This document shows positions 8,351 through 53,242 of a stretch of DNA of 64,000 nt, piece by piece (the stretch's first letter is position 1; each line of letters begins with the position of its first letter). Source of the DNA: an uncultured virus (IMG/VR IMGVR_UViG_3300001525_000355). Its lineage: Duplodnaviria; Heunggongvirae; Uroviricota; Caudoviricetes. The notes beneath the pieces are model-generated. The model was not told where the DNA came from and ran no database searches. It saw only the letters and a program-made list of their open reading frames with translations. Location of the stretch: IMG/VR virus record IMGVR_UViG_3300001525_000355, one strand, 5' to 3'. The position numbers and the translations under genes were made by a program.

Positions 8351-9253
8351 TTACTCCTCAATACCTTCATTGACTAAAGTTTCGGCTCTTTTCAATAATT
8401 TACTTTCAGTCAATGAACATTCAAGTTTACGTTCTTTGTAAATATCTTCTATCTTAATACAGATATCCTTGAGAAGAGCATAATACAATACAATGAGTTC
8501 ATCAACTTTTTCTTTATAAATCTTCAGATTATTAATTACTAATCTAAATAATTCAAAAGCTGTATCAACTTCTTTATAAAGTTCTTGAAGTTTTATATCT
8601 GATGATATATGAAGAAGTCTTGAAATACCATCCAATATATCATAAATCTTCTTAAGTTTATATGCTCTACCTACAGCAGTAAATGACTTAGTAGTACCAT
8701 CTCCTGTAGGCATACCAGTCATAGGATCTACAGCACCCATTCCCATTGGACTTTGTGGTGCAGTAGCATCACCCAAACCTCTAAGAGGATCATCATCCTG
8801 TGGCTGTTGTTGCATCATTCCCGGATTCAATGGTTGACCGGTCATTGGATCAATCTGCACATTTGGATCCATTGGCATTCCGGTATTTGGATCTATACCA
8901 ACAGCACCATTTGGATCAGCCATTTCTCCATCATCAGCTGGAGGATTTTCAATCTGTTTAATTTTTGCTAAAGTTTCTTTAGTCTTTGCTTCAATATTTC
9001 TGATTTGAGCAGCAATCTTAAGAGTATTGGCTTTAGTTTCACTGTGTGGAACATCATCAATACTCTTAATCAGTGGTTCAAAAGTATCTTCTTCCTCTTG
9101 ATTCTGTTGTTCAGCATTTTCTGGTAATTCAACTGGATTTTCAACTTGAGCTTGTTCATTTGGATCAACAGTAGGATCATTAATTGGTTGATTCTGAGGA
9201 TCTTGAACTGGTTCCTCTGCTTCTCTTAAGAAACTATAAGTTGATCTCTTCAT
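8351..9253 (-). CDS. putative prohead core or internal protein (MKRSTYSFLRE leader, DPxTG(M/Q)P repeats)
   Basis: Likely start is ATG9253; YSFLRE leader; acidic Gln/Pro/Met-rich low-complexity N-half; helical C-terminal domain with LTE. Confidence 0.65.
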   Translation of the reverse strand: MKRSTYSFLREAEEPVQDPQNQPINDPTVDPNEQAQVENPVELPENAEQQNQEEEDTFEPLIKSIDDVPHSETKANTLKIAAQIRNIEAKTKETLAKIKQIENPPADDGEMADPNGAVGIDPNTGMPMDPNVQIDPMTGQPLNPGMMQQQPQDDDPLRGLGDATAPQSPMGMGAVDPMTGMPTGDGTTKSFTAVGRAYKLKKIYDILDGISRLLHISSDIKLQELYKEVDTAFELFRLVINNLKIYKEKVDELIVLYYALLKDICIKIEDIYKERKLECSLTESKLLKRAETLVNEGIEE

Positions 9254-9260
9254 AAACTTT

Positions 9261-9590
9261 TTAAGCATTTGGATTCACTGTAGGATCTTGTCTCTGACGA
9301 TCTGCTTCAGCTTGTCTATCTGCTTCCTCATCAGCCTGCTGCTGTTTAAGATCATCAAGTGATTTCTTTGCATCATGCTGAGTTCTTGCAAGCTGAGCCT
9401 TTGCAGCAATTAATTCTGCTTTAGCTTTCAAATTGGCAGCCTGTTTTCTCATCTCATTGGTTGGATCATCAGGATTATCAATGAGTGACTTTGGATCACC
9501 AACTCTTGCAACTTGTGGATCTCTTGCTGGTGTCTTCACCATTGATTTGACACTATCAGCTTCCATAAGAAATGAATATTGTTTAATCAT
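9261..9590 (-). CDS. putative internal head protein (MIKQYSFLME leader)
   Basis: Leader motif followed by an Ala/Gln-rich coiled coil. Confidence 0.65.
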   Translation of the reverse strand: MIKQYSFLMEADSVKSMVKTPARDPQVARVGDPKSLIDNPDDPTNEMRKQAANLKAKAELIAAKAQLARTQHDAKKSLDDLKQQQADEEADRQAEADRQRQDPTVNPNA

Positions 9591-24542: not shown

Positions 24543-27500
24543 TTAGAAAAGAAGATCATTATCATTCTCAGATTCTTTCCATAATGGATTTAGCATAATG
24601 GAAACTCTGTCATCACAAGCATATGATAACATTTTCTTTGTATCAATAATAAAATAATCAGGAAGTTTCTCAACACCTTCAGGAGTACAGATATCTTTAG
24701 CATCAGCATTACTCCACTTCTTCACAAAAATATCATAATATCTCTTTTTGATATTTTCTGGTGCTTTATCTATATCAATACCAAGAATGTTCCAATACTT
24801 ACCCTTAGTACCATGTTTAAAATCTTCGATACCAGTAATATCATTCCACTTAATCATTGCCTTAACTTGGAATGGGAATACTTTATAATCTTTAATATCT
24901 TTAGAAAATGATACAACTCTTGCCATCTTTGCATCTTTTTCTTCAAGAAGTCTTAACATCTTATTTCTATATTCATTGACAATATTATCAAGAATTTCTT
25001 TTAACTGAAATTTTTTGACATTATCATCCATGATAGTATCAACTATCTTCTGTAATAATTCCTGAGATGCTTCTGGAATTTCAGATCTTTTAATTTCAAG
25101 ACCTTTAATATCAATATACGAAATATCATGTCCTTCTTGGGAAATTACTTTACTTGCATAATGCTTAGAACCTTCCAAACTATAATATCTACTAAACAAG
25201 AATTCATTCTTTAAATACATCATGCTTCTTTTTAGATTGATATTATGTCTTTGTAAAAGTTGCGGTAATGCAATCTTATTATAGAAATTTTGAAGTTTAC
25301 TTATCTTTTCATTAACTTCTTTACAATTTTTTAGTGGTAAATTATTCTTGACTAAATAATCAGTCAGATTTACCATGATACTATCTGTGTCGCCATAAAT
25401 GATTACATCATTTGGTTTTTCTGCTTTCTTTTCAAATCTTGGATCTATCGGATGATCAGATTCATTTATTATACCCTTTATATAAGAATATACTCTATTT
25501 GCTGCATACTTCAACATTTCTTGACCAGTTAAAGTAATAGTCTTACCCAAATCAGGACAATAGAATCTCCACCACTTTGCACCAAGAACACCATAAAGTG
25601 AGTTAGCAAGAGTCTTAAATGCTAACTGTTTATTATTAAACTCCAATGTCTGTTGTTTAAAACCCTTCTCTTTTGCTTCTAACATCTTCTTTTTATAAAG
25701 AGATCTAGAATCCATCAAATGAGTAAGAATCTCCACGTTAGCAGCTGTATGAATATCATGTCCACAAAATATAGTACCAGTAATACTTATCTGTGCATGA
25801 TACTTTTGTACAAATGCTTCAAATTGAGTTAAATCCCACTTTACTGTCTTTTTGGCATGAATCGGATCAAGTAAAACATCAAATTTCTTACCAATAAGAC
25901 CATTCTTATCAAAGATATAACATCTTGCTATATCTTCATTGACATTTGCAATATAAGTATCATTACCAATATTCCAAGTACAAATCGTGGTTGGATACAA
26001 TGATTTGTAGTCAAAGTCACAAAGAAGACCTTCAAATAATCCACCTACACAATCATATACATACGCACCAGGGAATTTTTCCTCAGGAACATCATACGTA
26101 TAGTTTCTAGAAATCATTCCCTTCTTTTTCAACATTGTTGCATACAAACCTTCTGCACAACCAATTGTTGAATTTGCACCAGATTGAGAAGTTGTAGATG
26201 TTCTTCTGATTTCATCTTGAAGTGAAATATGCTGCTCTGCTTGTTCAATTTCATAAATAAGTTGAGTATCAGTTTGAGAATATTTCATAAATTTCTCAAT
26301 ATTATCATGATACATATCATCAATTGATTCATCATGTTGGATTTTTTCTTTACCAAGAACAGTTGAAGCAATTGAGTTTAATGAATATGAAGGTTGAGTT
26401 TGCTGAACAAGATCTTTAAACAATTTTAACTGATCCATACAGTGATAACCAACAATCTGGTTTCTACCACTCTTGTCAGCATATACACAACCATATGGAG
26501 ATAATTCGTTTGGCTTGATTTCCAGATTACTCATTCTCTTTACAATATACGGAATATCGAATCCATTAATATTCCATCCTGCAAGAAAATCAATTGATGA
26601 TACATAGATCTTTTGAAAGAATGCTCTTAACATAGTTCTTTCATCATCAAATAATGTAATATACGGAAAATCCTTTATAAGATCTTTTACCCGACTATCA
26701 ATCTCACCCTTGAGATTTAACATATAAACATGAACTGAATCATTTTCATCATCCGTTCTAAATGAAATTGCTGTAATCGGATACTCTGCTTTATCTACAT
26801 TCGGAAATACATTCTTTCGATACTGATATGTTTCAATATCGAAAAACATAATATTATGTCTAATTACTGGAGCATCTGCTTTATTATTCAAATTATAATC
26901 TACGGCGTGTTGCATTTCAATACTAACATCACCACCATAGGCTCTGATAGATCTATTTCTATCCTTATATTTACCTACAACAAGTTTAAGTTTATCAATC
27001 TCATCAATAATTCGATTTGATTTAATTGCTTCATACCAATAGAAATTATTTTGATAAATCGGAAATTCAAAAAATTCCTTTTTATTATCTTTATCTCTAA
27101 AAATATAAATCAATTTATCTTCACCACTGATATATTGTATATCAACCAATCTGTATTGATCAGTATAATATTTCTCTGGTATTTTAACCGAATAATACTT
27201 ACTATGTGCGGTTTCTGGTTCTTTCTTAACCAAGATATCGGTTAATTCTTCAAAGCTCCCAAGAGTCGTAAAACCATATTTTGACATATCTATATCATAT
27301 GTCAAATCAATAATAAAAGAACGTTTCGGATTACATTTTGTTTTAATTGCAATCACATTACCAAAACAATTATTAGTACATTCTTTTAAATTGACATTAA
27401 AACCATGTTTGTCACATAAACATCTATCACAAATACCATACTTAATATCAGGTAATTTATCTTTAAAGAAATCAATTAATGATTCACCATTTTTATCAAA

Positions 27501-27623
27501 ATCACAAACAACCAATATATCCAGATCAGATATATCATTGTTATTACAAACAAAAGAAGTGTCACTATACTTCTTTGAGTCAATTAAAGGGCAACCGCCA
27601 CATTTTCCGTGTTTAGTCTTCAT
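24543..27623 (-). CDS. family B DNA polymerase with an N-terminal Cys-rich UDG-like domain
   Basis: Exonuclease motifs FDIET, GWNINGFDIPY and YSQTD; polymerase motifs DYKSLYP, KTLANSLYG and YGDTDS; N-terminal CGGCPL...DILVVCD...C...C. Confidence 0.95.
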   Translation of the reverse strand: MKTKHGKCGGCPLIDSKKYSDTSFVCNNNDISDLDILVVCDFDKNGESLIDFFKDKLPDIKYGICDRCLCDKHGFNVNLKECTNNCFGNVIAIKTKCNPKRSFIIDLTYDIDMSKYGFTTLGSFEELTDILVKKEPETAHSKYYSVKIPEKYYTDQYRLVDIQYISGEDKLIYIFRDKDNKKEFFEFPIYQNNFYWYEAIKSNRIIDEIDKLKLVVGKYKDRNRSIRAYGGDVSIEMQHAVDYNLNNKADAPVIRHNIMFFDIETYQYRKNVFPNVDKAEYPITAISFRTDDENDSVHVYMLNLKGEIDSRVKDLIKDFPYITLFDDERTMLRAFFQKIYVSSIDFLAGWNINGFDIPYIVKRMSNLEIKPNELSPYGCVYADKSGRNQIVGYHCMDQLKLFKDLVQQTQPSYSLNSIASTVLGKEKIQHDESIDDMYHDNIEKFMKYSQTDTQLIYEIEQAEQHISLQDEIRRTSTTSQSGANSTIGCAEGLYATMLKKKGMISRNYTYDVPEEKFPGAYVYDCVGGLFEGLLCDFDYKSLYPTTICTWNIGNDTYIANVNEDIARCYIFDKNGLIGKKFDVLLDPIHAKKTVKWDLTQFEAFVQKYHAQISITGTIFCGHDIHTAANVEILTHLMDSRSLYKKKMLEAKEKGFKQQTLEFNNKQLAFKTLANSLYGVLGAKWWRFYCPDLGKTITLTGQEMLKYAANRVYSYIKGIINESDHPIDPRFEKKAEKPNDVIIYGDTDSIMVNLTDYLVKNNLPLKNCKEVNEKISKLQNFYNKIALPQLLQRHNINLKRSMMYLKNEFLFSRYYSLEGSKHYASKVISQEGHDISYIDIKGLEIKRSEIPEASQELLQKIVDTIMDDNVKKFQLKEILDNIVNEYRNKMLRLLEEKDAKMARVVSFSKDIKDYKVFPFQVKAMIKWNDITGIEDFKHGTKGKYWNILGIDIDKAPENIKKRYYDIFVKKWSNADAKDICTPEGVEKLPDYFIIDTKKMLSYACDDRVSIMLNPLWKESENDNDLLF

Positions 27624-27915
27624 TTGTAAAAATCCTCGATGGTTTAGGTTTTTTCAGTTGACATCTTAACATTTCAGTCCGTCAAGTAACGCTCCTGCAG
27701 AATTAACTGCGCTCATTTACGTGGTGCGACGCGAAATACCAGATATTCAAAGTAAAAAAATCAATGCTATTTAGAGATATACTGTTTGTGGGAAGGGATC
27801 CCCGGCTTTACTAAAAGTAAGAGGTCGTTGAATGCAGCATATTAAAAATAGTTTCCACCACCGAGAATGTGAAATTGATTTTTAGTTCTTGCACAAATCG
27901 GTGAAGAAGAGGTAA

Positions 27916-27945
27916 ATGGTACCTGAACCGAAGTCCAGGTACCAT
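27916..27945 (-). terminator. UUCG-capped hairpin, probable terminator
   Basis: Minus strand reads ATGGTACCTGGAC-TTCG-GTTCAGGTACCAT, followed by TTACCTCTTCTT. Confidence 0.65.
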
Positions 27946-28121
27946 ACAACAACATATATAACAACAAAAAAGAAAATATATTACAAACTATCAAATACTA
28001 ATAGTGGTTAGATATCATAACAATATTAAACGGGTAATACTAAATTATCAAACAATCTAATACTAAATTATTAACATCTAATTTAATATATTTTATTGCG
28101 AATGATAAAATCAAGTATCAA

Positions 28122-28394
28122 TTACTTGACGATCTTATCATTTGCAATTGAAAGCTCACGCCACTCCTGAAGATTCTTGCGAAGAGCAAGCGACATCTTA
28201 CGGGCGCGACCGGCAGCAGCCTTGTTATCAAATCCCTTCTCAGCCTCATCAACAAACTTTGCAAAATCACTCTTGAGAAGAGTAATCGCATCAGTATAAG
28301 CAGATGTAGGATCAGGATCAGGTTCAGGATCCCGGAGCTTCTCAGGTGTGGGATTAGCCACAGTCACAGATTCATTTACAATTTCGTCAGCCAT
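28122..28394 (-). CDS. histone H1-like (Hc1 family) nucleoid protein
   Basis: FVDEAEKGFDNKAAAGRARKMSLALRKNLQEWRELS matches the NKAAGxRARKxSLxL family pattern; strong AAGGAG RBS. Confidence 0.75.
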   Translation of the reverse strand: MADEIVNESVTVANPTPEKLRDPEPDPDPTSAYTDAITLLKSDFAKFVDEAEKGFDNKAAAGRARKMSLALRKNLQEWRELSIANDKIVK

Positions 28395-28460: not shown

Positions 28461-29639
28461 TTACGATACTATATCAGGACAAGATTCAAACATTGTATTT
28501 AATTGACGATTTACTCTATAGAAAGTAGCGTGTTTACTAAGATTCTCAATTCTATGACAACCTATATAAGTAGCAGTACTTCTCAAACCACCATTAATAT
28601 CTTCTATAATATTCTTGATCGGTCCTTTATAGGGAACAAGTTTTTCTCTTCCTTCACTTGCCCTTACATTTGATTTGAAACCACCAAAATGTCTTTCTTG
28701 TGCAAGTTTGGATGACATACCATAATATTCTTTATATTGTTTATCATTTTTAGTAATAATATCACCAGATGATTCAGTACATCCAGCAAACATAGATCCA
28801 GACATAACAAAATCAGCACCAGCACAAAATGCCTTACATATATCACCAACAACTTTACAACCACCATCAGACATAATATACTTATTTAAATGATGGGCGG
28901 CATCAGCACAATCTATAATAGTTGACAATTGGGGTCTACCAACTCCTGTCTTGGCACGAGTCAAACATACTCCGGATGGCCCGATCCCGACTTTCGCACA
29001 ATCGGCACCACTATTTAAAATGGAATACACTCTTTCTGCAGTAACTACATTTCCTGCAACAATAAAACTATCAGGAAGAATATCACGAACTTCCTTAATT
29101 CTATCAAGTAATTTTGGACAATAACCATTTGGAACATCAATGGTTACAATACTTGGACAATAATCATTGTGTTTACTAAGATTTTTGATAATGTCGGTAC
29201 TTTCTTTGATACCTATACTTATACTAACTCTACTGCACAATTCTCCATAATCAAAAAGATACTTCTCATCTCTATCCAATTGATCTATAAATCTCCAAAG
29301 ATCATCATAAAGTCCTTTGATATCATTTTCAGATATATGCTTATCCAGTGTTCCAATATAACCATTAATTGTCAAAGCTTTAACACATTCAGTATTTCCA
29401 ACTGTTGCCATATTGGCACAAGTGATGGGAATACAAAAGAAATTATTTTTCCAAATCTTCTTTCCCCTATTGTCTCTTTTGTAACCACCGTATCCAAAAT
29501 TTCTAAGAAGACAAACTTCTGATCTACTATTCAAATCAGAAATATTGGGTTTGATTAAAACATCATCGAAATCCAATTGGACAGCATCTTCAATTTTCAT
29601 ATTTTTAAAATGTAATTTTTGATTAATTTTCAAGTTCAA
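28461..29639 (-). CDS. guaC: GMP reductase
   Basis: LDFDDVLIKP, IDVPNGY, AGNVVT, KVGIGPSGVCLTR, SDGGC, YYGMSS and RASEG motifs; the true start may be the second Met (MKIEDA). Confidence 0.9.
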   Translation of the reverse strand: MNLKINQKLHFKNMKIEDAVQLDFDDVLIKPNISDLNSRSEVCLLRNFGYGGYKRDNRGKKIWKNNFFCIPITCANMATVGNTECVKALTINGYIGTLDKHISENDIKGLYDDLWRFIDQLDRDEKYLFDYGELCSRVSISIGIKESTDIIKNLSKHNDYCPSIVTIDVPNGYCPKLLDRIKEVRDILPDSFIVAGNVVTAERVYSILNSGADCAKVGIGPSGVCLTRAKTGVGRPQLSTIIDCADAAHHLNKYIMSDGGCKVVGDICKAFCAGADFVMSGSMFAGCTESSGDIITKNDKQYKEYYGMSSKLAQERHFGGFKSNVRASEGREKLVPYKGPIKNIIEDINGGLRSTATYIGCHRIENLSKHATFYRVNRQLNTMFESCPDIVS

Positions 29640-29749
29640 AATATTGTTATTTTTGATTTTTTAAGAATCTATCAAAGTACAAAAGATTCACGTTTTTTGG
29701 TACAAAAGATACAGCTTTTGTACAAATTTAACAAAAACGTAATAGGGGA

Positions 29750-30067
29750 CATTCTACACTAGAATGATCTGTGTTATGCTGAGGCATATCATCCGAATCA
29801 CTTCGGACTCGTGGCGTAAACGCTCATGGAGTAGTGATAGAACGTCACCGTGATGAAATAATTTATATACGCTTTGCGATAAATTATTTCTCTTGATGAA
29901 CCTGAAAAAGGTTCTCTGGGATGAACCGTAGAAATCGGTTCTTTGATGAACCTAAACTAGGTTCGGATATCGTTCCTACGTTTTAGATAGTCCGTAACAG
30001 TTGACGGCGCCCTCGCCGAGTCAGATGGAAACAAAGATGGAAGGTTTATAAATTCCTTCCGGTCTTT
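29750..30067 (+). ncRNA. candidate structured non-coding element (chain of about 11 hairpins, including four GATGAA...TTC units)
   Basis: A GC-richer island with no ORF, made of consecutive short stems; the wobble pairs seen are G-U on the + strand. Confidence 0.45.
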
Positions 30068-30137
30068 AATACTTTAGTAAAAAACTTTAGTCGATTACTT
30101 ATTCCATTAACAATTTTAATATATAATACGAGAACTT

Positions 30138-30247
30138 AAAGGACTAAAGAGATAGAGAAGAAAAAGGCTTTGAGAATTGAAGAGATAAAGGACTAAAGTG
30201 TTAAAGAAGATTAAAGATCTGAAGTCTTAAAGCTAAAGAGATAGAGA
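30138..30247. repeat. purine-rich short direct repeats
   Basis: AAAGGACTAAAG at 30138 and 30187; CTAAAGAGATAGAGA at 30144 and 30233. Confidence 0.5.
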
Positions 30248-30470
30248 TCTTTATTGAGAGAAGAAAAAGACAAAAAGATATGATAATAAAAATTCTGAAT
30301 AAAATATGCACCTGGTAAACAATCAATGTTCTTCTCTATCTCATAGATTTCTGATTGACTAAAGTAATATATTAAAGAATTGATATTACTGTTAATATCT
30401 AGAATAAATTGCGTACCTGGGAAAACATCAACATCTATCTCCTTCCACTTTGATTCCTTATATATAAGGA

Positions 30471-31182: not shown

Positions 31183-31923
31183 ATGGTTAACGAACGTTAT
31201 AAAACGATGTCGGATAAGAACATTCCCCTCATTGAAAAGATTATGACTTGGCAGGGAGAAGGATGTAATGCCGGTAAAAGAATGCTTTTAGTACGTTTTA
31301 AATATTGTAGTTGTCATTGCCCATTTTGTGACACTTGGACAAAGATGGGTGAACTCAAAGAAGACCTTTATAGTATTAATGATATCATTAAACAGATGAA
31401 GGATGAATCGATTGAGAATCTTATGATTACTGGAGGGGAACCCACTTTGGGAACTAAACGACCCGAAGGTATAAAGAACAATATCGATTCTACTTTGGAT
31501 CTGCTTACATATGTACCATTTGAATATGCTGATGTTGAAACCAATGGTTACAATATAGAAGATTTGCTTCATAGATCAATCAAGATCATGAATCATCAAA
31601 TTAATAAACATATTAACATTAGTTATAGTCCTAAATTCTTTAAACCCTCTGATGTTGAAGAATCTCTTATTAAGTGTCAGTACATTTCTTTGTATGCACC
31701 ATATTATCCGATTCTTAAGGTTGTTGTAGCAGATGAATTATCTAGATCGTTTGTATACCGACTTATTAACGAAAAGATTTATAATCCGAACTATTTATAT
31801 TTGATGCCTCTTGGTACTACGGATATTGAGATTAAGAAATCATTTCCAGATGTTGTAAAAATGGCTACTGAATTGAAATGTAATATCAGTGGTCGTATGC
31901 ATTTAACTCATGATTTTGTCTAA
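31183..31923 (+). CDS. queE: 7-carboxy-7-deazaguanine synthase (radical SAM)
   Basis: WQGEG, VRFKYCSCHCPFCDT (CxxxCxxC), ITGGEPTL, ETNG, SPK, YLMP and GRMH motifs. Confidence 0.9.
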   Translation: MVNERYKTMSDKNIPLIEKIMTWQGEGCNAGKRMLLVRFKYCSCHCPFCDTWTKMGELKEDLYSINDIIKQMKDESIENLMITGGEPTLGTKRPEGIKNNIDSTLDLLTYVPFEYADVETNGYNIEDLLHRSIKIMNHQINKHINISYSPKFFKPSDVEESLIKCQYISLYAPYYPILKVVVADELSRSFVYRLINEKIYNPNYLYLMPLGTTDIEIKKSFPDVVKMATELKCNISGRMHLTHDFV

Positions 31924-31950
31924 TAATCATCAAATATAAAATAAAACAAC

Positions 31951-32388
31951 ATGAAAGATAATACATATACGATATATCTTAGTTCTACATCTTTTAAATT
32001 TTGGAATTTTAGAGATAAGAATTGGAAAAATAAGTTTATGCATTATCTTTCTGATGTTAAAAAGATTGAAAAGGTTGAATATATAGATCCTTTAAAGGTA
32101 TTATCAGATAAACCTGAAATTGTTAGTCAGGATATCAATGATATAAGTTCAAGTAATTGTATAGTATGTTATCTTGGTAAAAAAATTACTATAGGAACGA
32201 TAATGGAAATTATGTATTCCATTATGTACTATAAAATACATGAAATTGATTTTCCGATTATTTTAATTGATAAGTATAAAATTCATAGACATCATCCCTG
32301 GATTAAGTATTGGATACCCTATATAGCGGATGATGAAGAAGATGCGTCAAACATAGTTGAGAATTTAATAACTAATTTAAACAATTAA
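31951..32388 (+). CDS. nucleoside 2-deoxyribosyltransferase / nucleotide N-hydrolase family protein
   Basis: IYLS...YIDPL...IVSQDINDISSSNCIVCYL...TIGTIMEI pattern; located between queE and queC. Confidence 0.7.
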   Translation: MKDNTYTIYLSSTSFKFWNFRDKNWKNKFMHYLSDVKKIEKVEYIDPLKVLSDKPEIVSQDINDISSSNCIVCYLGKKITIGTIMEIMYSIMYYKIHEIDFPIILIDKYKIHRHHPWIKYWIPYIADDEEDASNIVENLITNLNN

Positions 32389-32400
32389 AGAGGATTTTTT

Positions 32401-33249
32401 ATGTCAGAGTCAGAAAATAATTGTTGTTGTACTGATGCCCTTAATGTTATCATGTATAGTGGTGGTGTTGATTCATTTTTAGCATATCAACATCTTCGTA
32501 AAGATGATACTAAAGTCATAGCACTTATATACTTTAATTTGGGTGCAAGATGTACTCAATGTGAAATTAATCTTTTTAATAGAATTGATTTCAAAAAACA
32601 TGTTGAACATGATGTCAATATAAGTGATTGTTTATCTATGGGTGGTTTGGAAAGGGATGATGCCTATATTCCAAATAGAAATATTCTTGCATCAATTATG
32701 ACCAATAGTGTCACTAATGCTGATAGAATATGGATTGGTGGAACTTTGAGTGACAGGGTTAATGATAATAATGAAGAGATATTTAAAGATCTCAGTGCAT
32801 TACTTTCAAAAATTCACAATAGAGAAATAGTTGTAACTTCTCCATTTTTTGATAAGCATAAATGCAAATTAGTTGAAGATTATGTTCTTACTAATGGTTG
32901 GGGTCATTATGAAGATCAACAACAGGCAAGATATTCTTTAGTAGAATCAACTTTTTCTTGTTATAATCCATTAGAGAAAGATCAAACTCTTGATATTAAT
33001 ATTGGTGAAGAAACTGTAAATATTGCTACAAGGGAATGTCTTGAATGCCCGGCTTGTTTTAGAAAATGTATGTCTTTATATGCTGGTGGTATCTTTATTC
33101 CAATGCTCAATAATGAGACTTCAAATCATATTATTAAAAAGTATTATGATGAAGCAAATTGTATGATCGATCTTGAACCTGAAATGAGAGATCGTTATAT
33201 TGCAACTATTAAATATTGTGAAGCATTGAAAGAGTTTAGAGATAAGTAA
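32401..33249 (+). CDS. queC: 7-cyano-7-deazaguanine (preQ0) synthase
   Basis: YSGGVDS PP-loop, YIPNRNI, and TFSCY...CLECPACFRK zinc site. Confidence 0.9.
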   Translation: MSESENNCCCTDALNVIMYSGGVDSFLAYQHLRKDDTKVIALIYFNLGARCTQCEINLFNRIDFKKHVEHDVNISDCLSMGGLERDDAYIPNRNILASIMTNSVTNADRIWIGGTLSDRVNDNNEEIFKDLSALLSKIHNREIVVTSPFFDKHKCKLVEDYVLTNGWGHYEDQQQARYSLVESTFSCYNPLEKDQTLDINIGEETVNIATRECLECPACFRKCMSLYAGGIFIPMLNNETSNHIIKKYYDEANCMIDLEPEMRDRYIATIKYCEALKEFRDK

Positions 33250-33261
33250 TACAAATTAACT

Positions 33262-33813
33262 ATGGCAGGAAGACCCAGAAAAGATTCAACAACAAAAAAC
33301 AATAATGAGAATAAATCATCAATTTCTCCTTATATGTTGTTGAATGCGTGGATACGAGATGGTAATTTAAAATCACCACTTCCAAAAGATATAGAAGATG
33401 GTAAACAATTCGGTCCACATTTTATATTGTATTATTTTGTATCATCACCCGAGTTATTTCGTTTTATAAATAAAACATTTAATAATTACAATTTGTGGAG
33501 TTTAAATACTATAGATGTATTAAAGACAATCAAAGAGATTGTTTATTATACAGGTTTTAGACAACCATTTGCACAATCAGTTAAAAAAGAAGAAAATAAA
33601 CTGGTTGATATTATTAAAGAGAAATATCCTTATTATAAAAGAGAAGAAATCTCGATGGTTGTTGATATAATCGATGCGGATGAAGAATTACAAGCTACAG
33701 TATATGAAAACTTTAATCTTCGTCCACCGACAAAGAAGAAATCAAACAAAAAAGATTTTAAAGAAAAATTATCAAAGATATTATCAAAAGAATCTTTATT
33801 CAATGATCTTTGA
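33262..33813 (+). CDS. hypothetical protein, weakly similar to a clamp loader small subunit (gp62-like)
   Basis: Size and SPYMLLN...IIKEKYPYY pattern are reminiscent of gp62; the function call is weak. Confidence 0.4.
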   Translation: MAGRPRKDSTTKNNNENKSSISPYMLLNAWIRDGNLKSPLPKDIEDGKQFGPHFILYYFVSSPELFRFINKTFNNYNLWSLNTIDVLKTIKEIVYYTGFRQPFAQSVKKEENKLVDIIKEKYPYYKREEISMVVDIIDADEELQATVYENFNLRPPTKKKSNKKDFKEKLSKILSKESLFNDL

Positions 33814-45192: not shown

Positions 45193-45897
45193 ATGGCTAT
45201 CGGATTTGTATATTTAACCACAAACCATATTAATGGTATGCGGTACATAGGTCAAAGACATTATCATCTATCAGATAAGAAGTCTGATGATGAATATATG
45301 GGATCTGGTACCAAAATATGGAAAGATTTACAAAAATACGGTAAAGAAAACTTTTCTAAAGTGATTCTCGAAGAGTGCAATACTCAAATCGAACTTAACG
45401 AAGCTGAAAAGAAATGGATAGAAAAGTATAACGCAGTGGATGATAAATCTTTCTATAATATAGCATTGGGTGGTGGCGATAGTTGGTATGCGAGAAGTTA
45501 CTATAAGAGATTGAAATTTAAGAAACGTATATCAGAATCCAATAGACTTAGAGTAAGAGATGGATCTAAAATTTCTGGCGAAAAGAATCCAGCTTTTGGA
45601 AGACATTGGTACAAAGATATGAAAAACCGAAAAACATATTATTTGTATAACAATGATCCTTTAATTAAAGAATTAGGTTTGAAACCGGGAACATTTAGAA
45701 GTAAGAAGCATAATCAAAAAATAAGCAATTCTTTAAAGGGGAAACCCAAAACGTATAAGGTTGGAGCTTGTAATAGAAAATGGATGCATCCAAGGGGTTC
45801 AGTAAATAGAAAAGAAGCTATTTTTGTTAAAAAAGAAGATATTCAAAAGTATCTAGATAAAGATTATATTTTTGGCATAAAGGATATTATACTATGA
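45193..45897 (+). CDS. free-standing GIY-YIG (Seg-like) homing endonuclease
   Basis: GFVYLTTNHINGMRYIGQ, YMGSG and FYNIALGG motifs; NUMOD3-like SGEKNPAFG and HNQKISNSLKG. Confidence 0.88.
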   Translation: MAIGFVYLTTNHINGMRYIGQRHYHLSDKKSDDEYMGSGTKIWKDLQKYGKENFSKVILEECNTQIELNEAEKKWIEKYNAVDDKSFYNIALGGGDSWYARSYYKRLKFKKRISESNRLRVRDGSKISGEKNPAFGRHWYKDMKNRKTYYLYNNDPLIKELGLKPGTFRSKKHNQKISNSLKGKPKTYKVGACNRKWMHPRGSVNRKEAIFVKKEDIQKYLDKDYIFGIKDIIL

Positions 45898-52852: not shown

Positions 52853-53242
52853 TTATACTTTTCTTATGATATGATCATCAGCAGTTCTATCTGCATTTCT
52901 AAATGCTTTAACACCCTGATAAACTAAAGATAATTCTCCAAGTAAAAGAGAAGCAAGCCATCTGAAAATAGTTCTTCCTGCAAAATACTTTGCTATATAC
53001 TTTCTATATTGGGAACCAACAAGACCATCAGGAATCCTGGAAGCAATCTTTCTGGCTTTTCCGCTATTAATAGAAAGAAGTTTTTCTTTTAAAGCATCAG
53101 AAGAAGGATATTTCTTCATTATAGAATCAATGATGGTTAATTCATTATAATAAGTGACACCAATATTGGCAAGATCGCCAACACCAGAAGCTTCATTAAC
53201 TACATCAAATGATTCACATACTACACGATAAGTTTTAGTCAT
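52853..53242 (-). CDS. hypothetical protein (MTKTYRVVCE leader), paralogue of the 52009-52758 gene
   Basis: AAGGA RBS; KYPSSDALKEKL domain; lone minus-strand gene in the plus-strand block. Confidence 0.65.
   Translation of the reverse strand: MTKTYRVVCESFDVVNEASGVGDLANIGVTYYNELTIIDSIMKKYPSSDALKEKLLSINSGKARKIASRIPDGLVGSQYRKYIAKYFAGRTIFRWLASLLLGELSLVYQGVKAFRNADRTADDHIIRKV

Follow-up and report, generated by a model that had tools for sequence, protein, structure and literature searches.

A repeated hairpin module in a structured non-coding region at the strand switch of an uncultivated T4-like phage

The structured region and its hairpin module

In a 64,000-nt stretch of DNA from an uncultured virus (IMG/VR record IMGVR_UViG_3300001525_000355; the whole 64 kb is hereafter called the window), a structured non-coding region at 29745-30075 occupies the gap between a leftward, minus-strand and a rightward, plus-strand block of genes. 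Its core is a tandem series of one short hairpin type, which we term HP1 and which recurs at the corresponding locus of related metagenomic phages. We consider it very probable that the region is a functional structured nucleic-acid element. The account that we lean towards, tentatively and without calling it probable, is that it encodes a plus-strand RNA, either a small RNA or a leader, in which a sequence-specific protein docks on the HP1 units. By its gene content, the window comes from an uncultivated, AT-rich, large phage that is distantly T4-like.

The original prediction, made from the letters of the window, had described a chain of hairpins around four tandem units in a stretch that has no open reading frame (ORF) and is richer in guanine plus cytosine (GC) than the genome, and it had noted compensatory changes between the units; all of this is borne out. 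There is no ORF of at least 30 aa inside 29763-30200 under translation table 11, and tables 4 and 15 gave only short frames in the region, needing one to four recoded stops and none of them credible. The GC content is 0.37-0.405 over 29700-30099 (in 200-nt windows), compared with 0.235-0.26 upstream, 0.25-0.28 downstream and 0.306 over the full 64 kb. Folded against dinucleotide shuffles, the plus strand (331 nt) reached -102.9 kcal/mol, whereas the shuffles reached -80.5 ± 4.9 (z-score, z, of -4.55), and the minus strand had a z of -6.09. On each strand the region was better than all 100 shuffles, and because the fold is strong on both, energy alone does not settle the choice of strand.

HP1 has the form N-G-A-U-GAACC-(zero to two further pairs)-loop-GGUUC-U-U-G, in which the U before GAACC is bulged. 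From the bottom up, it consists of a lower stem made of a G-U or G-C pair and an A-U pair, the bulged U, the GAACC/GGUUC stem, one or two covarying pairs and the loop. The window has four GATGAA units at 29852-29964 on the plus strand. Units 2 (29895-29919; GAU, GAACCU-GAAAA-AGGUUC, UC) and 3 (29920-29943; GAACCG-UAGAAAU-CGGUUC, UU) are canonical, and unit 4 (29945-29964; GAACCUA-AAC-UAGGUUC) is an HP1 with a 7-bp stem that has lost the 3′ UU flank. Unit 1 (29852-29893) is a diverged HP1: GAU is retained as its flank, and its stem still begins with GAA and ends with UUC, but AU pairs take the place of the core CC/GG; its 12-bp AU stem has 100% complementary arms and an inner ACGC/GCG tip (z -4.79, 0 of 200 shuffles as good). 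Units 2-4 folded together gave a z of -3.66, and RNAfold predicts the lower stem with the bulged U for units 1 and 2. Units 2 and 4, which are 86% alike, form the sole repeat family among the units, unit 3 being less alike. The compensatory changes fall at the sixth stem pair, which is U-A, G-C and U-A in units 2, 3 and 4, respectively, and unit 4 adds a seventh pair, A-U.

The octamer GATGAACC occurs three times on the plus strand and never on the minus strand of the 64 kb, and all three copies lie at 29895-29952. Three copies within 50 nt, when 0.53 per strand are expected in 64 kb, argue that the module is not due to chance. We also searched the whole window, on both strands and with filters off, using a model of HP1 only (R2) built from 12 copies outside the window. 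Unit 2 ranked first (25.6 bits, E ~1e-4) and unit 3 second (15.9 bits, E 0.05), on which basis we take the window to carry HP1; unit 4 scored 12.0 bits (E 0.61).

At the gathering score, neither the window nor eight related loci (145,677 bases in all) matched any Rfam 15 family. Even when E values up to 10 were admitted, the best match reached 24.4 bits against a cut-off of 85 in the window, and 21.1 against 100 in one relative (L157). ARAGORN listed no tRNA or tmRNA genes in the window. Literature searches on tandem hairpins with structured RNA in jumbo or T4-like phages, and on phage zinc knuckles, brought up nothing that matches the element. We therefore regard HP1, as judged from its sequence, as a new family of RNA motif; the general kind to which it belongs, the structured regulatory or origin RNAs of phages, is known.

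Several identities were tried by eye and set aside: a kink-turn or C/D box (the 3′ strand lacks GA), a hammerhead (no GAAA after the stem), boxB (the HP1 loops vary) and an alternative pairing of HP1 with the second hairpin found in relatives (not conserved). A small ORF from the AUG in GAUGAACC was likewise rejected: its frames, of 3-16 codons or more, move from copy to copy as the loop changes in size. The size differences are not multiples of three and the downstream letters are fixed, so that this AUG opens no conserved frame.

The module in related phages

To place the element among its relatives, we used the family B DNA polymerase (PolB). The nearest deposited phages have a PolB only about 25% identical to that of the window, and uncultivated relatives in the protein collection reach 92%. 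One relative at 49% is a complete genome of 321,650 bp (G002, whose locus is L142). Single-protein queries found no close relatives in IMG/VR, and a species-genome search returned distant PolB relatives only. An alignment of 34 PolB sequences led to 136 loci, 79 from metagenomes and 57 from IMG/VR. Between loci, nhmmer found nothing and blastn weak leads only; blastn of the region against 50,697 phage records gave no match.

A regular-expression screen for GAACC-N3-13-GGTTC over the 136 loci and the window (2.04 Mb) found HP1 with its GAU prefix once each in L144, L145, L152 and L153, twice in L155 and in L147 (one copy inverted there), and three times each in L157 and the window. The remaining matches have no GAU prefix and lie within coding sequence. 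Pattern scans of IMG/VR added L278, and a model described below (R1) added L148, in which the copy is cut off at the contig end. In total, HP1 is carried by eight complete and one truncated related metagenomic phage contigs, with one to three copies each. Of the patterns scanned in IMG/VR, GATGAACC..GGTTC..GATGAACC matched 138 stretches, and the first 80 were nearly all repeats coding for proline and acidic residues, which makes so loose a pattern useless; two further scans matched 11 and at least 120 stretches, with one true HP1 copy each among the matches listed, in the same contig (L278). Coding repeats of this P-D-E-P type occur in many IMG/VR contigs and are unrelated to HP1.

In each relative, HP1 lies in the divergent gap upstream of PolB and of a gene for a protein like the chlamydial histone Hc1, and its sense strand is the one opposite to PolB; the window has the same arrangement. 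On both sides of the element the order of genes is conserved, the far side having QueE, a QueD-sized ORF, QueC and four further shared ORFs; the window departs from this order in one respect, a GMP reductase gene standing between the Hc1-like gene and the element. The module is kept across phages whose PolB is 42-49% identical to that of the window. The interpretation in the original prediction is thus supported in part, as to an undescribed structured element with repeated modules: no Rfam family matches it, and in relatives HP1 stands at the syntenic locus in the same orientation and with some covariation.

Across 15 copies, the five core pairs of HP1 are invariant and the loops share no common motif. 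Pair 6 is UA in nine copies, AU in two, GC, GU and UG in one each, and another combination or unpaired in one. In the lower stem, the A-U pair is present in 14 copies, and the pair below it is G-U in 11 and G-C in one (12 of 15). The covariation score of HP1, 0.155, was above that of all slid registers and was matched by 4 of 500 shuffles, a count that is not a probability given the few pairs and the origin of the copies in at most 10 related phages.

The relatives also have a second hairpin, HP2, which follows UUGGG and begins 5-8 nt past HP1. Its stem of four pairs has G-C as the closing pair, its loop reads CAAN, and together HP1 and HP2 make a compact double hairpin of about 45 nt. Three of the four HP2 pairs show two-sided changes (CG/UA/GC/UG, UA/GC/AU and CG/AU); 95% of cells are paired and none of 500 shuffles reaches the score, figures that are favourable because the alignment was fitted to the model. 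We ran a model of HP1 plus HP2 (R1), built without the window, on 141 sources, i.e. the window and 140 loci. The relatives scored 37.5-60.1 bits, and the window 20.2 bits at unit 2 (E 5.7e-4, 1.39 Mb); no other significant locus appeared in 100 sources or in the 41 more (best there 15.7 bits). The scores of R1 and R2 together indicate that the window has HP1 but not HP2.

Directly behind the motif, all seven relatives with downstream sequence (L144, L145, L147, L152, L153, L155 and L157) have two conserved genes, an ORF of about 130 aa (ORF1) followed by one of about 260 aa (ORF2; for example L147:7751-8539, minus strand). ORF2 has two repeats of a basic helix plus a CX2CX4HX3-4C (CCHC) knuckle, and a Rossmann-like C-terminal domain. 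Its predicted structure (predicted local distance difference test, pLDDT, 67) likewise has two helix-plus-knuckle repeats and a generic Rossmann-like domain, with a best Foldseek E value of 5.5e-3. Neither ORF1 nor ORF2 matches a Pfam family above cut-off or has a solved relative, and in Atlas both fall in unnamed clusters only, below 0.9. ORF1 is unrelated to the 124-aa ORF of the window. ORF2 is a candidate reader of HP1 and HP2.

In the lambda nut site (boxB and N), as in phage Mu (Com and the mom leader), a small leader hairpin is recognised by a small phage protein, basic or zinc-binding, whose gene lies nearby, and the relatives, in which a basic two-knuckle protein follows the motif, resemble both. 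BoxB is recognised through its loop; unlike boxB, HP1 has loops that vary, and the window is without the knuckle protein. In lambda, the order is nutL and then N. These likenesses bear on a first alternative, that HP1 (with HP2 in the relatives) is a put- or nut-like cis antiterminator, which in the nascent transcript would modify RNA polymerase, directly or via a phage protein, and let it pass the hairpin at 30033-30067, as well as terminators further on, and so enter the rightward operon. We judge this unlikely. In every phage the motif stands ahead of the operon and close to the putative promoter, the knuckle protein lies directly behind it in seven of seven relatives, and a terminator-like hairpin follows the modules in the window, although by scan rules that hairpin is weak as a terminator. 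In L147, the HP1-HP2 copies at 9028-9079 (plus strand) and 9293-9344 (minus strand) lie 200 nt apart between divergent operons; the second copy aims at the Hc1-like/PolB operon, a parallel to putL and putR, yet the two copies face each other instead of diverging. The numbers of copies, one to four, are also unusual for such sites.

Among the closest known layouts is the put RNA of phage HK022, which the part of PMC8632103 drawn on here describes as a double hairpin of about 65 nt, placed ahead of terminators and early genes, whose structure is required and after which RNA polymerase reads through terminators. Like put as described there (PMC8632103), the HP1-HP2 of the relatives is a phage-encoded, non-coding and apparently promoter-proximal compact double hairpin, and its ~45-nt form resembles the put layout. 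The window differs: it has tandem single HP1 hairpins, no HP2 and no knuckle protein, and belongs to a T4-like and not a lambdoid phage. Set against the put layout, it has these tandem single hairpins with a weak terminator-like hairpin after them, behind a candidate promoter. The likeness to put and boxB is one of layout, not of sequence, and antitermination fits the relatives well and the window less well.

Other relatives have different candidate RNAs at this locus. At the syntenic locus of the 321-kb relative (L142, ~9410-9525, minus strand) stands a candidate RNA of about 115 nt that starts with G and ends in a hairpin and UUUUU; beyond it come another structured stretch and a pair of direct repeats of 62 nt. 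In L185, two copies of a different GC-rich module, ~45 nt long and starting GGAGGTCCG, lie on the minus strand ~200-480 nt upstream of the Hc1-like gene, and each copy is preceded by its own ACAAAAGA box, an upstream sequence treated below, and a -10-like hexamer. The locus appears to be a fast-evolving small-RNA site. Our preferred reading, a small RNA or leader, fits the presence of a different G-started RNA with a hairpin and U run at the same locus.

Transcript, downstream repeats and candidate roles

The units stand within a longer chain of plus-strand hairpins, and every hairpin that the prediction had named is present where it was placed. The 5′ domain (29745-29852) consists of a G run and five short hairpins: CATTCTA/TAGAATG (29750-29766), TATGC/GCATA (29775-29788), TCCGAA/TTCGGA (29792-29807), GCGT/ACGC (29814-29823) and GTGAT/GTCAC (29834-29848), the last requiring one U-G wobble. 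Folded alone it has a z of -2.59, with 2 of 200 shuffles as good, and no homologue of this domain was found. Behind the four units, sequence and fold agree on GGATATC/GATAGTCC with one bulge (29965-29993) and TGAC-GGCG/CGCC-GTCA (30002-30023). The 3′ hairpin, AAAGAU-GGAAGG/CCUUCC-G-GUCUUU (30033-30067), is followed by a UUUAAUACUUU tail to 30078; hairpin and tail (30033-30078) fold at -12.7 kcal/mol (z -2.34; 4 of 200 shuffles did as well) and make a weak terminator candidate.

Upstream, an apparent control region on the plus strand (29677-29723) has ACAAAAGA boxes at 29679-29686 and 29702-29709 in operator-like inverted repeats, and the inverted repeat GTACAAAAG-N6-CTTTTGTAC (29700-29723) holds the second box. 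Of 13 presumed RNA starts in the window and its relatives, 7 have a ACAAAAGA box on the sense strand at a distance of 45-68 nt upstream, where we estimate from the base composition of the window that about 0.016 per start would be expected; the plus-strand copy of L147 has no such box upstream. The ACAAAAGA box is probably a shared promoter or regulator site. By eye, a sigma-70-like promoter candidate spans 29718-29745 on the plus strand (TTGTAC, 16 nt, TAATAG) and ends at the G run.

From these features, and from those that distinguish the strands, we infer that the region is transcribed from the plus strand. The flanks of HP1 are asymmetric and favour one strand. The G-U and U-G pairs (one each at pair 6, and G-U in 11 of 15 lower stems) would be A-C mismatches on the other strand, which supports the plus sense. 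The sense strand also has the lower minimum free energy in seven of nine RNAs.

On the preferred reading, 29745-30075 would be a non-coding gene, or a promoter-proximal leader, for a plus-strand RNA of ~330 nt, a chain of about eleven hairpins with a core of three canonical and one diverged HP1. HP1 would be the docking site for one sequence- and shape-specific RNA-binding factor, a role suggested by the conservation of its stem base, bulge and flanks together with its free loops. Tandem copies would make the RNA multivalent, and the RNA would recruit or titrate the factor at the start of the rightward early operon; the binding and its regulatory outcome are what we infer from this pattern. 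Such a site has a counterpart in the coat-protein operators of MS2 and PP7, where the protein binds a short hairpin in which one base is bulged and the letters of the stem are conserved. HP1 resembles them in being short, with a single bulge and a conserved stem. The MS2 and PP7 loops carry specific letters, and an RNA phage genome has a single such operator; in HP1 the loops are free, and the window has multiple copies.

A number of findings weigh against this reading. The antisense strand has a z as strong or stronger, its value being lower in six of nine RNAs (-6.09 in the window), and the second HP1 copy of L147 has the opposite orientation. The five invariant pairs of HP1 are uninformative on pairing, and its covariation amounts to one or two pairs in 15 copies from at most 10 related phages. 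Inspection of the sequence found no HP2 in the window, where R1 scored only 20.2 bits, and no HP1 occurs anywhere in G002, the complete 321-kb relative, so the module is dispensable in the wider group. ORF1 and ORF2 are absent from the window, as they are from L142, and no ORF of at least 60 aa in the window has a CCHC knuckle motif; thus the most obvious candidate partner of HP1 is missing in this phage. A consensus scan listed neither the promoter at 29718-29745 nor the 3′ hairpin as a terminator. Lastly, the GC-skew minimum and the adjacent repeats, described below, fit an origin equally well.

The copy number of the module (1, 2, 3 and 3+1 in different phages) bears on another alternative. 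Tandem hairpins that mimic a host RNA, such as an antitoxin RNA or a CRISPR repeat, could act as an anti-defence decoy that soaks up a defence nuclease or effector early in infection, with a number of copies selected for dosage, and the position would suit an early gene under a promoter of its own. Precedents exist in RNA anti-CRISPRs and in the pseudo-ToxI repeats of phages. ToxI itself is an array of near-identical 36-nt units, which fold into pseudoknots and lie beside a toxin gene. HP1 is like ToxI and pseudo-ToxI in being a tandem short RNA unit of variable copy number in a phage; unlike them, its units are simple hairpins that differ from one another (86% for units 2 and 4, less for unit 3) and have no adjacent toxin gene. 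No toxin or Cas gene is known for this phage, nor is its host, and the presence of one module across phages with PolB at 42-49% identity is more easily explained by a phage-encoded or universal partner. We hold a decoy to be very improbable.

Two known kinds of repeated RNA were rejected as identities. A type III antitoxin array does not agree with units that are not near-identical or with neighbouring ORFs that match no toxin family, and a CsrB-type sponge does not agree with the lack of a GGA loop motif, the loops of the 15 copies sharing none. CsrB and RsmZ sponges keep GGA motifs in their loops. They too are chains of similar hairpins, as HP1 is, with copy number varying among relatives; HP1 differs in conserving its stem base, bulge and flanks.

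An AT-rich, purine-skewed repeat field (30063-30470) separates the structured region from the first rightward ORF. It belongs to the same control region as the structured element, and its repeats may serve as iterons, operators or promoters. ACTAAAG/CTTTAGT occurs five times in it, and 5 of the 24 copies in the window lie within 900 nt; GAGATAGAGA occurs three times (one inverted) of four copies in the window, and 30-37-nt direct repeats are also present. GC skew is +0.46 and AT skew +0.34 over 30100-30299. In the 300 nt past the hairpins, GC content falls to 0.24-0.29 and purine content rises to 0.69. Cumulative GC skew has a V-shaped minimum at 28-30 kb, the skew being -0.12 to -0.26 over 6-30 kb and +0.09 to +0.24 over 30-64 kb. 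Among the relatives, L278 has a tandem array of 5.9 units of 66 nt right behind its HP1 copy, and direct repeats downstream of the locus also occur in L142 and L157; such repeats are absent from L144, L145, L147, L152, L153 and L155, i.e. six of the eight relatives scanned, and the purine skew past the motif is not conserved (0.40-0.71 among relatives). A AAAGAGATA-like core is found both in the repeat field of the window and in the 66-nt unit of L278. An AT-rich 16-mer shared by L142, L144 and L157 was discarded, since it is not enriched in the window (11 matches vs 15.6 expected).

These features lend circumstantial support to the alternative offered in the original prediction, a single-stranded DNA structure for an origin, and raise the possibility, in our estimate an appreciable but still unlikely one, that the region is a T4-type origin of replication. 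The promoter would fire a transcript whose structured 5′ part stays free, the A+T-rich DNA downstream would open as an R-loop or unwinding element, and the hairpins, in RNA or in the displaced non-template DNA strand, would be a loading signal for helicase or primase. The account draws on the skew minimum, on the switch of coding strand at the element, on flanking genes for replication (PolB, clamp loader, DnaB-like helicase and exonuclease), on the low GC and high purine content past the hairpins, and on the iteron-like ACTAAAG and GAGATAGAGA repeats, to which the array of L278 and the direct repeats of L142 and L157 may be added. The skew switch is, however, fully confounded with the coding-strand switch, and no more than 64 kb of the genome is in view. 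Between the RNA and the AT-rich field there is a hairpin with a partial U tail, the downstream repeats and purine skew are not general among the relatives, and variable half-site spacing and compensatory changes speak against HP1 as iterons of duplex DNA.

Precedent for such an origin comes from T4. In the parts of the review drawn on here (PMC3016281), T4 origins consist of a promoter and an A+T-rich unwinding element, oriE has 12-nt iterons, and oriE, oriF and oriG lie at transcription divergence and at a shift in nucleotide bias. Our element is like oriF, oriG and oriE in lying at a divergence with a nucleotide-bias shift and in being followed by an AT-rich repeat field, the two signals being mutually confounded. 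Set against the T4 layout of promoter and unwinding element, it has low GC (0.24-0.29) past the hairpins, a candidate promoter, and an intervening hairpin with a partial U tail. It is unlike the T4 origins, for which those parts of the review mention no conserved hairpin module (PMC3016281), in that a GC-richer structured RNA of ~330 nt and a terminator-like hairpin precede the AT-rich part. The origins of T4 share no sequence motif according to the same parts (PMC3016281), and the precedent therefore fails to explain why the sequence of HP1 is conserved.

A more specific scheme, which we consider quite improbable, would make HP1, with HP2 in the relatives, the RNA half of a new phage RNA-protein switch at the strand-switch point. 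It would be read by the tandem CCHC knuckle protein in the relatives, in the manner of nutL and N, and by another factor here. In T4-like large phages it would bring about processive antitermination in the early rightward operon, or else gate, by RNA, the firing of the main origin. The structured RNAs of large uncultivated phages are almost unexplored, and this element marks the one point at which both the coding strand and the GC skew switch. If HP1 docks a protein, it would provide a new RNA-protein recognition pair and an orthogonal tool like the MS2 and PP7 hairpins; if the origin reading were true, HP1 would be the first origin element among T4-like phages with a conserved sequence (cf. 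the statements on T4 origins in the cited parts of PMC3016281).

Genome layout and neighbouring genes

The T4-like character of the window rests on genes for a Gp23-type capsid, a Gp20-type portal and a Gp21-type prohead protease, and on the family of its PolB. Its replication genes encode PolB, a clamp loader, a DnaB-like helicase, a RecA/UvsX-like protein and an exonuclease, and those for nucleotide metabolism include an anaerobic ribonucleotide reductase and ThyX. From 5.5 to 29.6 kb, long ORFs are all on the minus strand, save for short ones overlapping them; from 30.5 kb rightward ORFs are on the plus strand, with the single exception of 52853-53242 (minus). Beside the element, the leftward block has GMP reductase, the Hc1-like protein, PolB and the clamp loader, and the rightward block has 7-deazaguanine and replication genes.

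The GMP reductase gene (28461-29639, minus strand), which adjoins the element in the window, lies downstream of PolB in relatives. The 7-deazaguanine set (31183-33813, plus strand) comprises a QueE-like ORF, a QueD-sized ORF, a QueC-like ORF and further shared ORFs, and together with GMP reductase it suggests a modified guanine in the phage DNA. A preQ1 riboswitch, considered because que genes follow the element, was rejected: no Rfam preQ1 family matched in the window or relatives, even at E values up to 10, and one L147 copy faces away from the que genes.

The Hc1-like gene (28122-28394, minus strand) encodes a 90-aa protein that matches the chlamydial histone-like Hc1 family with an E value of 3.5e-9, and it lies directly upstream of PolB in nearly all relatives examined. 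PolB itself (24543-27623, minus strand) has an N-terminal extension of about 200 aa that is typical of its clade, with invariant cysteines C8, C11, C70 and C86 in 34 sequences; more distant members have a uracil-DNA glycosylase domain in its place. The gap of ~500 nt between the two genes (27624-28121, minus strand) is itself structured, with GC raised to 0.35-0.37 and a perfect 13-bp hairpin with a UUCG loop near 27915-27945; 337 nt of it folded with a z of -3.36, and 0 of 100 shuffles were as good. This gap could be a long PolB leader or an operator, for which the autoregulation of T4 gp43 offers a parallel. Further to the right, a gene for a SegE-like GIY-YIG endonuclease (45193-45897, plus strand), likely a homing endonuclease by its sequence, lies between the genes for the anaerobic ribonucleotide reductase and its activase.

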